A stretch of 64,000 nt of DNA, taken from contig CAWDRG010000015.1 of NCBI GenBank assembly GCA_963804645.1, positions 224,001 through 288,000 on the forward strand. Direction: 5' to 3'. The notes beneath the pieces were generated by a model. The model was not told where the DNA came from. It searched no databases and saw nothing but the letters and a program-made list of their open reading frames with translations. The position numbers and the translations under genes are program-made. This DNA is from an uncultured Bacillota bacterium. Lineage in GTDB: Bacteria > Sysuimicrobiota > Sysuimicrobiia > Sysuimicrobiales > Segetimicrobiaceae. Below are positions 26,419 through 29,256 of the stretch, in pieces (the first letter of the stretch is position 1; every line of letters begins with the position of its first letter).

Positions 26419-27339
26419 CCGAGCTCGCGGCGTTCTCACAGCTGAGATAAACTGTGGCCGGCCACCCATCGGGTGGCCGGCCACGATGCTTCTGCTCCGT
26501 CTGGACGGCGCCGGACGCTCCCGGGGCTAGAGGATGATAACCGGGCCGACGCGGGTCCCGACCGGGCCGCCGCAGAGACCGTCCTTCAGCGCGTTACGCC
26601 CTCCCCCCGACGAGGTGGCCGATCGTTCGACGAACGCCGCCTCCGACAGCGCGCCGGCCCGTGCGAGCGCCCGAAGGCTTTCCGGCTCCTCGATGTCCTT
26701 GCTGTGAGCCTGACCATGTACGCCAGCAGCGTCAGGTACGCGTCCGACGCCACGTCGACGTACCAGATGCAGATTCGGTCGGTGGCCTCGTCAATCAGGT
26801 CGCGAAACTGGATCGGCACCAGACCGGCCTGCACGTTCACAATCGCGTCGGTGCCGCCGCCCCGGGAGGAACCGGGTCGCCCAGGTGGTCCGGCTCGTAC
26901 CGATAGGCGTGGGTGCCCTGACATCAGCAGGTTTGAAGAACACCCCCTAATTATCTACACAATCCCCCCGCAGGCGAGGACGTCGCTAATCTGTTTACGC
27001 ACACTCCGTGATCAACTTGCGTCCATCAGACCTGCAGGTTGAAGTCGTCTGGGCCGCCCTTAAGGACAGCGTAGGCGAATCCCTGAGCAAGCGCGCGGAT
27101 CGTATGGCAGGCGCCGACGGGCACACGGATGACAGTGGCGCACGGACTCGCTGTAACCTTTTTGGGTGCGTCGCGTCGGCCGTGCCGTGCGACGACTTCG
27201 ACCTCTGCGCCGTAAACGACGGTGTACTCATTCGCTTGGCGATGCCAATGCACCGGACAACCTTCGAAAGGTTGGGGCCTATGATGCTGTCGGTATGCCA
27301 AAGATATGGCACATATCTGAGAACGCTGCGCCTGTCAAG

Positions 27340-27726
27340 CCTCCCTTTCAACAGTCGGATACCATTGTCTGCGCCTGCCGGCATATTTAGGCATGCTTCC
27401 CCCGCGACGAGGCGGTCAAGGATCGCGAAGCGAGCCGAAGGCTTTGTCCTTGACGGCCGTGGGAGCGGGGGATAGGGATCCCCTGGGCCGGCAGGCGCCG
27501 GGTCCCACACACTCTCGCGAGCTCGTGATCTTCGTTTCTATACTCTGCAGCTCACCTCACTCATCCGGTATCGTGCTCCTTGGACTCTCCAGTTACCGCG
27601 TCCATTTGCCTCGGTCCCGATCGCGTCGGTGAGCCATATCTTCGCCCTGACGAGCTGCATGAGGGTATCCCGAAGGCGTGTCGCAATCACTCAAACGAGC
27701 CTCAAGGGCTCATGTGCCAACCGCGC
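27340..27726 (-). ncRNA. Putative bridge/seek RNA of the IS110 element
   Basis: Two segments (27686-27694, 27630-27642) match the left and right flanks of the insertion site in opposite orientations. Boundaries are approximate. Confidence 0.8.
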
Positions 27727-28785
27727 TTACGCCTTCGTGGACGCGTCGGTCTTGCGTTTGGGCTCCTGGTAAGGTTCCTCCTTGGTCAGCATCCAGTACG
27801 TCGCCTCCGCCAGATGCCGTGCGACGGCGCCGATGGCTCTGGCATGATCTTTGCGGTGGTGCACTCGCGCATAGAGGCCACTGACGTGGCGGTGTTTCCA
27901 TTGCGCTCGCTCTCGATGCCGGCAGCACACCTCGGCCGCTTCCGCGAACACCCATTTCAGGTAGTGGTTCACGTCGGACCGCGTCCGTCCAAACCGGGTC
28001 TTGCCCCCACTGGAGTGAACGCGCGGGGTCGTACCGGCGTACGCGGCGAGGTGCTCCGCGTCAGGAAAGCGGTGGACGTCCCCCACCTCCAGCAAGATCA
28101 CCATCCCGAGAATGAAGCCGACGCCGGGCAGGCTGCGCAACCGTTCAAGTGCCGGCGTCGTTGTGAAGACGTCTCGCATGCGGTTCTCGAGGTCCGCGAC
28201 TTGCTCATCCAACCGGTCAAGGTGCTCCAGCAACTGGTGCGTTGCGAAGCGGGTGTGCGGCGGAAGGTGGCCGATCGTGTCGGCCAGCAGCACGCGACCC
28301 TGCTTGCCAAACACGTCACTCACACCTGTGACCGCCAGTCCGTACTTGGCCAACGTAGCGTGGATCCGATTCTTCAGTCGGGTCTTCGTGCTCACCAACA
28401 CCATGCGCGTCCGCGGCAAGTCCCGCTGATCGCGGACCTCCGCGGGCGGGATCCAGACCGTCGGGAGCGTTCCGGTCCGTTGCAACCGGTTCAACCCTCG
28501 CACGTCCAGCTTGTCGGTCTTGTTGATCATGCCCGACATGAGCTTGGCCTTACGGGCGTGCACCAAGCGCGGGACCATACCCGCTTCTTCGATCTCGTCG
28601 ACCAACCAGTACCAGTTGCCCACCGTCTCCACGGCAACGGGGGAACCGGGCGTCCACTGTTCCAAGAAGTCCCGGATGGCTCCGCGATGGTGTGCGAGCC
28701 GCGTCTCTCGCAACACCTCCCCGGTTGGACGCTCCACCGATGCGACGGTATAATGCTTGTGAGCATCGAACGCGATGTACTCCAT
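27727..28785 (-). CDS. IS110 DEDD recombinase/transposase
   Basis: Motifs [37 protein letters not shown] and AVARHLA. Confidence 0.96.
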
Positions 28786-29256
28786 TTGCTGCGCCTCCTC
28801 TCGTACCCGGGATTGGCTGTCTCGGTACGAGGGTACCACCGTACCCCCGGAGGCGCAGCGTTCTCATACCATCACTCAATACCCGTTTGGGGCCATTTGT
28901 CCACTAAATCAACAGCTGCTGTCAACCCCACTGGGCCGTGCGAAAACTGACCAAAGAATTGACCCCCAGCTTCCACGGACCGCGGTGAGCCAGCCCGCCA
29001 ACGTGTTCGTCTGTTCTTAATGGCGGGGTGCCGCGGCAGGGCGCGAACATAACAAGTAGCGCGCAGTCTGATCATTAATTGCCCGCATCACCACCGTCCG
29101 TGGCTTTGGGCGGGCCGGCGCTGTCCGATAGACGGCGATCGCGTGTATAACTGATGTCAGTCGAGCACGGACGGCGGCATCCCGGCGGGGCGGTGGTGGC
29201 GAGGTTCGGTCCGGTGCGATGCGACGCTCTGCAGCAGTCGGGGTTGGGAGGCAATC

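Follow-up and report, generated by a model that had tools for sequence, protein, structure and literature searches.

An IS1111-group insertion sequence of an uncultured Bacillota bacterium and a four-guide map of its predicted bridge (seek) RNA

The window, the 64,000-nucleotide stretch of DNA analyzed here, comes from an uncultured Bacillota bacterium and contains an insertion sequence on its minus strand. The element has a recombinase gene, a long non-coding tail downstream of it, and inverted repeats close to both ends.

28873..28879, minus strand: left target half, TTGAG (28879-28875) followed by the left TG core copy (28874-28873), placed from the alleles and the match to the left guide
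28872..27312, minus strand: insertion sequence of 1561 bp, starting ATGGTATGAG... and ending ...CAGATA followed by one copy of the TG core (27313-27312)
28851..28866, minus strand: left subterminal inverted repeat TGAGAACGCTGCGCCT, a perfect 16-bp inverted match to 27333-27318
27727..28785, minus strand: recombinase gene (352 amino acids), an open reading frame with both family domains
27318..27338, minus strand: TTGACA (27338-27333) running into the right subterminal inverted repeat (27333-27318), read from the sequence
27301..27311, minus strand: right target half TGCCATATCTT, of which the guide reads TGCCA only
Target-site sequence: TTGAGTGTGCCA

The recombinase reading frame (28785-27727) is open, as an earlier note on this DNA had stated, and encodes the Pfam domains DEDD_Tnp_IS110 (PF01548, 7e-12) and Transposase_20 (PF02371, 5.9e-23). 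The protein and the IS621 transposase (8wt6) are related (E 1.5e-12), and in their alignment an 11-residue segment with the motif G--P----S/TG falls on the IS621 serine loop. The 16-bp repeats and their terminal extensions (ATGGTA and GATA) agree with the 7–17 bp repeats and short extensions of the IS1111 group, and the TTGAC ahead of the right repeat is also seen in relatives. Also as in this group, the non-coding DNA is longer between the stop codon and the right end (415 nt) than upstream of the start codon (87 nt). The family domains, repeats, and long tail, together with the guide covariation described below, bear out the proposal of the earlier note that this is an IS1111-type IS110 element with a guide RNA in its 3′ non-coding region. 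We conclude that the element is very probably an intact IS1111-group member of the IS110 family whose insertion site is chosen through a bridge (seek) RNA encoded directly 3′ of the recombinase gene. It is an ordinary member of the already known RNA-guided IS110/IS1111 family. The genome has no full copy besides the window element, and thus no second intact copy as a sign of current activity.

The extent of the element was defined from empty and occupied alleles. A locus that is empty in this genome (G000 C9) is occupied in metagenome contig L092 by a 1561-bp element 99.9% identical to that of the window, and subtracting the empty allele from the occupied one leaves exactly the 1561-bp block listed above. 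The empty locus reads GGGTATTGAG-TG-TGCCATACC, giving the site as TTGAG-TG-TGCCATA. The window element sits in a dispersed host repeat; in two units of one repeat family, the C15 and C9 insertions occupy one and the same position and are independent events. The alleles and the two repeat units both reveal that insertion occurs at a short core common to donor and target and does not duplicate the target. The loose ends seen in runs X3 and X5 of DNA reads are consistent with site-specific insertion; neither a joint skipping the element at the C15 locus nor a circle junction was found among the DNA contigs.

The targets of relatives were also considered. The relative in G061 (53% identical) targets the terminal repeats of another mobile element, a motif that occurs as inverted pairs with a spacing of 133 bp or 1.24 kb. 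For some other relatives, whose left flanks end in GGTTCGAATCCCGT-TG and whose right flanks begin with GGGCCACCA, tRNA genes were tried as targets and rejected. ARAGORN found no complete tRNA on their rejoined flanks with either core, and such targets are therefore called tRNA-3′-end-like only.

The RNA begins within the last codons of the recombinase gene, and its consensus fold was obtained by comparison of relatives.

27617..27736, minus strand: core of the bridge/seek RNA, from the RNAalifold consensus
27736-27730 with 27678-27672, minus strand: helix P0
27725-27722 with 27685-27682, minus strand: helix P1
27712..27719, minus strand: right target guide UGGCA-CA-U, on the 5′ strand of the target loop just past the stop codon
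27711-27707 with 27701-27697, minus strand: helix P2
27686..27694, minus strand: left target guide UUGAG-UG-AU, on the 3′ strand of the target loop
27659..27668, minus strand: probable right donor guide AUACCCU-CA-U, 8/9 complementary to TG-ATGGTAT (core plus left end)
27658-27643 (approximate), minus strand: donor-loop hairpin
27635..27641, minus strand: predicted left donor guide AGAUA-UG, with the sequence of the final right-end bases followed by the core, located inside 27642-27630
27629-27617, minus strand: hairpin

The RNAalifold consensus of 103 relatives has 19 base pairs, 15 of which show compensatory changes. Within it, 27719-27712 and 27694-27686 form the two strands of a single internal loop between P1 and P2. 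The donor-loop hairpin is less well kept in this lineage, with two of the four family pairs. A single-sequence fold of the whole tail was no more stable than those of shuffled sequences (z = -0.39), and such a fold is therefore unusable alone. A search of 27000-29200 against Rfam 15 (E up to 1) returned no relevant family, only a chance match to Tombus_IRE within the gene (E 0.23), and the assignment of the RNA class therefore rests on our own comparison. A hint of expression comes from a metatranscriptome: the sole contig at this place from RNA library run X12 (270 nt, 27479-27747, 0 differences) is confined to the region of the non-coding RNA, but it carries no strand or end information and may derive from DNA carry-over; parts of the element without RNA contigs in X12 carry no meaning. 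A consensus scan for an internal minus-strand promoter ahead of the RNA found none.

The left target guide is the segment TTGAGTGAT at 27694-27686, which matches the left junction (28879-28871) at 9/9 positions, as compared to a simple-count chance expectation of ~0.006 nine-mer matches in the 387-nt tail. The earlier note had taken this match to cover the left flank plus core. The match itself stands, but its final AT belongs to the element, whose own first bases extend it, such that the integrated junction overstates the match to the target. The left guide has the highest mutual information in the data set and fits its own flank at 3.79/5 positions versus 1.24 for foreign flanks. Among 70 non-redundant guide/flank pairs these values were 3.97/6 and 1.68, although this and the other permutation excesses reported here overstate the independence of the pairs because the relatives share descent. 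The right target guide, 27719-27712, is the complement of the right-junction sequence A-TG-TGCCA and shows antiparallel mutual information with right-flank positions (own flank 3.89/7, foreign 1.94). Across 80 right guide/flank pairs, the longest complementary run averaged 6.86 for own and 4.20 for foreign flanks. In copy B both target guides, the right as well as the left, differ from those of the window copy, and each change fits the flanks of B itself; for example, its left guide AGCCC-UG-AU goes with the flank GCAGCCC-TG, the site of B being GCAGCCC-TG-GCAGCC. In the data set as a whole, the left guide, right guide, and left donor guide rank top in mutual information, each in the expected parallel or antiparallel register. 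The match to the top strand lies 5′ of that to the bottom strand. This is the order of IS1111 seekRNAs according to the part of PMC11187229 drawn on here, not the IS110/IS621 left/right layout that the earlier note had assigned.

The second unit of the RNA matches the element's own ends. From sequence covariation, we firmly assign AGAUA-UG as the predicted left donor guide: it fits its own right end at 4.89/5 positions versus 3.83 for foreign ends, has mutual information with the right-end extension, and tracks five right-end variants (AGATATG, AGAGATG, ATACATG, AAATATG, and AGATTTG). The right donor guide is assigned tentatively, with a presumptive extent, and is the weakest of the four. Left-end positions 11 and 12 share mutual information with RNA positions 65 and 64, which is the register predicted, and relative L127 has a 9/9 match; the excess over foreign ends is modest (4.57/7 versus 3.81), and among the 70 relatives mismatches occur at one position in 46 and at another in 58. 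TCATGC was rejected as a right donor guide, being invariant while the left end varies.

These guides and the core differ from those first proposed. The earlier note had read the empty target as TTGAGTG-ATG-TGCCATATCTT, with ATG as the core, in which case the element would begin at GTATGAG. ATG is indeed present at both junctions of the integrated copy, and both target guides reach into it. However, the empty allele lacks ATG; the element thus begins with this triplet, leaving TG as the common core. In G061, with eight copies of the relative mentioned above, the site pattern with ATG had 0 matches, whereas the pattern without it had 117 versus 11 for the control. Furthermore, the third base of the left junction varies among relatives (ATG, ATA, ATT) while the right junction is constantly ATG, and RNA segment 27668-27659 tracks the left-junction variant (e.g., in L127, AUAAUAUCA versus TGATATTAT). 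An ATG core is thus highly improbable. The same holds for a layout in which 27694-27686 is paired with a long right target guide at 27642-27630, which would give a specificity of ~20 bp. The latter segment, AAGATATGGCTCA, is 12/13 complementary to the right flank in the window copy, as had been noted, with an estimated chance expectation of ~0.0007 in the tail, but a role as target guide does not follow. Copy B retains the segment (AAGATATGACTCA) despite an unrelated right flank, and in the same register the 70 relatives pair at 2.90/13 positions with their own flank and 3.10/13 with foreign ones, the best after the window copy reaching 6. The entire region past the left guide scores 4.61 with own and 4.61 with foreign flanks (83 pairs). 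The left guide covaries with the left flanks of other copies, ~70 relatives in all, and the proposed right guide does not covary with the right flanks. Nor do the two segments face each other in one loop, since the left guide instead faces 27719-27712 in the P1-P2 loop. Being conserved whatever the right flank and tracking the right end of the element, 27642-27630 is better understood as containing the left donor guide; that it guides target choice is very improbable. With TG as core and 27719-27712 as right target guide, the specificity is about 12 bp (TTGAG-TG-TGCCA).

The tail contains one further structured feature.

27364..27505, minus strand: palindromic structured module of ~140 nt, found with covariance model R1 (147.9 bits)

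Of 23 genomes of the family, 6 contain the module; it stands in the tails of IS110 elements, in the leaders of ISL3 elements, and in plain intergenic DNA. We set it aside as a part of the family's guide RNA, as it is absent from most relatives and is present in ISL3 leaders and intergenic DNA, and regard it as a passenger in the tail. It might instead belong to a long bridge RNA and have a lineage-specific function, for example in 3′ end formation or stability, or as an additional binding loop. Its location on the sense strand within the tail, its retention in A and B and in the relatives from G015 and G006, its covarying stems and variable internal loops, and the extension of the X12 contig to its 5′ stem would fit such a role. 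We nevertheless consider this unlikely: most relatives, with tails of 140–300 nt, lack the module, the same module stands in the 5′ leaders of ISL3 elements, 9 of the 16 loci examined have no transposase among the tested ORFs, and the G-U and A-C counts in the stems (33 versus 22) give no strand signal. A portable structured RNA acquired independently by two unrelated types of transposon (in IS1111 tails and ISL3 leaders) and by some host intergenic regions is a similarly doubtful reading. If true, the module would serve a shared function (transcript end formation, stability, or insulation) rather than being an inert MITE.

In the mechanism we propose for the element, apart from this passenger, the RNA would begin in the last codons of the gene and present its target loop between P1 and P2. 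There, UGGCA-CA-U (27719-27712) on the 5′ strand would pair with the top strand of the right target half and UUGAG-UG-AU (27694-27686) on the 3′ strand with the bottom strand of the left target half, both overlapping on the TG core. A second unit of the same design would read the left end through AUACCCU-CA-U (27668-27659) and the right end through AGAUA-UG (27641-27635). On the model of IS621 and ISEc11, the element would leave as a circle. Its junction, joined here from the end sequences, would read ...CAGATA-TG-ATGGTA... and would have TTGACA, 17 nt, and TATGAT as a putative promoter, from which the recombinase and RNA may be transcribed. The circle would then recombine at TG into TTGAG-TG-TGCCA without duplication. 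Binding of the RNA by the protein, the circle and its promoter, and the chemistry of strand exchange are thus what we infer from these better known systems.

The closest parallels are ISEc11, ISKpn4, ISPa11, and ISPst6, as described in the part of Siddiquee et al. 2024 (PMC11187229) considered here. They share with the window element a DEDD recombinase carrying the G--P----S/TG motif, subterminal inverted repeats, a long stretch of non-coding DNA after the gene, a short RNA with its top-strand match 5′ of its bottom-strand match and with matches overlapping in the target, and site-specific, duplication-free insertion into repeated or folded sequences. Unlike them, the window element is known from sequence alone, has an uncultured host, another target, and a TG core, and has an RNA starting inside the gene's last codons and a 140-nt palindromic passenger in its tail. 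The portions of the IS621 reports compared here describe two loops, target and donor, with one strand per half (left half plus core, right half) and a 2-nt core (Durrant et al. 2024, PMC11208160), and 5′-strand guides continuing one base past the core complement in the handshake guides (Hiraizumi et al. 2024, PMC11208158), all as in the window element. In contrast to IS621 in these portions (PMC11208160, PMC11208158, and Hiraizumi et al. 2026, PMC13626964), the RNA lies at the right rather than the left end, the loop strand order is reversed, and the element has long subterminal repeats; its donor unit also has no clear closing outer helix in the consensus fold (compared with PMC11208160, PMC11208158).

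The mechanism has been known since 2024, and the element itself is no surprise. The 12/13 match to the right flank, seen in the window copy only among 70 relatives, is a caution for sequence-only readings, as such a match to a flank can be a donor guide. What is useful is the map of all four guides, now corrected, for an IS1111 subfamily with a TG core. The more than 100 natural relatives, with different target guides on one conserved scaffold, constitute a natural reprogramming series for the engineering of IS1111-type recombinases.

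The window holds one IS1111-type element of the IS110 family, whose recombinase ORF encodes 352 amino acids and is intact, as the earlier note had read it. The protein carries both IS110-family recombinase domains (Pfam DEDD_Tnp_IS110, 7e-12; Transposase_20, 5.9e-23) and has among its relatives the IS621 transposase of solved structure (8wt6, E 1.5e-12); an 11-residue stretch aligns with the IS621 serine loop. Downstream of the gene the element has a long non-coding part of 415 nt. Subterminal repeats and a long non-coding region after the gene are features of the IS1111 group (PMC11187229, PMC11208160). 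The genome has this single full copy, on contig C15, plus a 78%-identical copy on C10 (191291–194842; loci L002, L003 and L215), here called copy B, which carries its own matching guides. The recombinase gene of copy B is split near codon 15 by a ~2-kb element encoding a 555-amino acid DDE_Tnp_1 transposase.

Features of the element and its site (window positions unless a contig is named)
28866–28851, minus: left subterminal inverted repeat TGAGAACGCTGCGCCT, a perfect 16-bp match to the complement at 27333–27318, just inside each end
28785–27727, minus: recombinase ORF
27719–27712: right target guide
27694–27686: left target guide
27668–27659: probable right donor guide
27641–27635: left donor guide
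28873–28926 and 27292–27311: interrupted host-repeat unit
C9:211908–212110: two tandem host-repeat units
C10:190673–190723: one host-repeat unit

The left flank belongs to a host repeat of ~110 nt, with a unit at the C15 site, a tandem pair on C9 and a single unit on C10. The repeat reads GTTGACAGCAGCTGTTGA...TGCCATA(C/T)CTTTGGCA and holds a TTGACA box and a TGCCA-N6-TGGCA palindrome. One C9 unit is uninterrupted (GGGTATTGAGTGTGCCATACC), and metagenome contig L092 is the same locus in occupied form, with unique sequence on both sides identical to that of C9. In L092 a 99.9%-identical 1561-bp element stands between GAGTG and TGCC, and the inserted block is ATGGTATGAG...CAGATATG; element and target therefore share TG as the core, and the element begins with ATG. 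Genome G061 has eight copies of a 53%-identical relative, and its consensus junction gave 0 matches with ATG and 117 without it, against 11 for a control pattern. Many of these 117 are paired in inverted orientation 133 bp or 1.24 kb apart, as terminal repeats of another mobile element (MITE or IS). From the L092 and C9 alleles and the G061 counts, the element therefore spans 28872–27312. An ATG core was rejected, being absent from the empty C9 allele and from the G061 sites; the empty site is TTGAG-TG-TGCCATA instead of the TTGAGTG-ATG-TGCCATATCTT proposed earlier.

L092 further records an independent second insertion of this element, at the identical position of a different repeat unit, which is the comparison between copies that the earlier note asked for. 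This second junction is also seen at loose ends of contigs from two DNA runs (X3 and X5). Another metagenome contig, L093, has the element with a C9-type left flank and a C15-type right flank; this reflects either chimeric assembly across the repeat or recombination between two copies. Relatives at L047–L055 and in G061, and at L059, L063, L076 and L085, have other targets; in several MAGs labelled Rokubacteria the target resembles a tRNA 3' end, GGTTCGAATCCCGT-TG-GGGCCACCA, in which ARAGORN called no complete tRNA.

Relatives were gathered from 61 related genomes, a species-genome collection (63 loci) and metagenomes (80 loci). They share a scaffold that starts directly after the stop codon: GCGCG leads into a variable stretch with CAT at its end, and a hairpin and a second variable stretch, with TGAT at its end, come next; TGCGACAC, ...TCAT, a hairpin and AAGAxATG complete it. 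Copy B already settles the main point of guide assignment. Its left guide, AGCCCUGAU, adjoins its own left flank, GCAGCCCTG; the stretch after its stop codon is GGUUGCCAU and its right flank GCAGCC; and the segment earlier named as the right target guide (27642–27630) is nearly unchanged (AAGATATGACTCA).

Guides were compared with their own and with foreign flanks; kinship among the relatives inflates the independence of the excesses, the direction of each signal remaining clear. The six variable bases of the left target guide have 3.97 matches to their own left flank against 1.68 to foreign ones (70 non-redundant pairs), and in fixed registers 3.79 of 5 against 1.24 (70 aligned sequences), which upholds this guide as originally placed. 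In the stretch between stop codon and first hairpin, the longest run complementary to the right flank averages 6.86 nt for own and 4.20 nt for foreign flanks (80 pairs), and the right target guide matches 3.89 of 7 against 1.94 in fixed registers. Three sets of pairs lead a mutual-information scan of RNA columns against junction columns (70 sequences): positions in the left flank are linked in parallel to the left guide, those in the right flank in antiparallel to 27719–27712, and base three of the right-end extension to 27642–27630. Together the target guides read TTGAG, TG and TGCCA, about 12 bp rather than the ~20 bp first estimated; this 12-mer occurs unoccupied in three exact copies genome-wide (chance expectation 0.63).

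Downstream of the left guide, the region that contains 27642–27630 shows no such excess (4.61 own, 4.61 foreign; 83 pairs). In the register first proposed, 27642–27630 pairs on average at 2.90 of 13 positions with own and 3.10 with foreign flanks, with 12 in the window copy and 6 in the next best, so this segment fails as a right target guide. It copies the right end plus core (AGATATG) because it is the left donor guide. The right half of this particular target contains CCATATCT, the reverse complement of AGATATGG and thus a mirror of the right end, which creates a near-perfect palindrome at the right junction, AGATATG-TGC-CATATCT (27301–27320, minus), and explains the 12/13 match. The same mirror relation was looked for in other relatives and none was found. 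We treat it as a coincidence of this target; it may have a biological reason.

The left donor guide matches 4.89 of 5 against 3.83 foreign and tracks the right end through five variants (AGATATG, AGAGATG, ATACATG, AAATATG and AGATTTG). Given the TG core, AUACCCU-CA-U (27668–27659) is complementary at 8 of 9 positions to TG-ATGGTAT, the core plus the element's first bases; it is a reasonably probable right donor guide. The register scores 4.57 of 7 against 3.81, two positions being mostly mismatched across the family, and within it mutual information links positions 11 and 12 of the left end to positions 65 and 64 of the RNA. Relative L127, whose left end starts with ATA instead of ATG, carries AUAAUAUCA, a 9/9 match to TGATATTAT. 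Both 5'-strand guides extend through the core complement (CA) and one further base (U). As an analogy, this resembles the arrangement of IS621, whose right guides take up pairing with the incoming core and handshake bases once strands have been exchanged (PMC11208158).

RNAalifold on 103 sequences gave 19 pairs, 15 with compensatory changes.

Stems of the RNA
P0: last gene codons GAAGGCG (27736–27730) with CGCCUUC (27678–27672); individual pairs CG 56, GC 31, UA 9, AU 4
P1: CGCG with UGCG; invariant
P2: GAGCC with GGCUC; covarying
Donor-unit hairpin: about 27658–27643; this lineage keeps only 2 of the 4 pairs

In the consensus fold, the right and left target guides form opposite strands of one internal loop, which lies between P1 and P2. 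The left guide thus faces a partner in one loop, as anticipated, the partner being 27719–27712 and not 27642–27630. The RNA has the top-strand match 5' of the bottom-strand match, the order given for IS1111 seekRNAs in PMC11187229 and the opposite of the IS110 type.

The single RNA library among four runs (X12) yielded one 270-nt contig, identical to 27479–27747, that represents the non-coding RNA region and leaves the gene uncovered. As one run with a contig lacking ends and strand, in a library where DNA can occur, it gives only a hint of expression. A consensus scan upstream of the RNA on its strand found no sigma-70-like site of its own, which fits co-transcription with the gene. Joined ends would place TTGACA (27338–27333) 17 nt before TATGAT, to which the right end contributes TA, the core TG and the left end AT. 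Read from sequence, this would be a junction promoter of the kind described for the IS1111 family in PMC11187229.

The tails of most relatives are 140–300 nt; the extra length of this tail comes from a palindromic structured module of about 140 nt (27364–27505, minus). The module has a three-way junction and an outer stem of 12 bp, and it matches nothing in Rfam. Just after the module, 26 nt before the right subterminal repeat, ATGGTAT (27359–27365, minus) repeats the element's first seven bases. The module also occurs in copy B, on C18 downstream of an IS110-family gene of 27% identity, and in the 5' leader of an ISL3-family element with zinc ribbon, HTH and DDE domains. That element has four identical copies (C22:~130230–128800, C9, C8 and C2); its left end starts GGCTCTTCGGG, and the module lies between its inverted repeat and start codon. 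A covariance model placed the module in 6 of the 23 genomes of the family, with nine sites in this one (the window, C10, C18, C19, two on C22, C2, C8 and C9). Its settings are IS110-family tails, ISL3 leaders and plain intergenic regions: three of 16 loci have IS110-family genes, three have ISL3 genes, and at nine the ORFs tested include no transposase. Pfam covered 35 of the 63 candidate ORFs around these loci, and the C19 locus was read by eye. The stems covary and show no strand preference (G-U 33, A-C 22). Given the shorter tails of most relatives and its presence in ISL3 leaders and at loci with no transposase among the ORFs tested, we do not count the module as part of the guide RNA; in our reading it is a dispersed palindromic repeat that has come to lie in this tail.

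The original observation is thus confirmed in part and its interpretation supported in part: the left guide stands, and the right guide and ATG core do not. The element is real, intact and well behaved, and the mechanism of its family was published in 2024.
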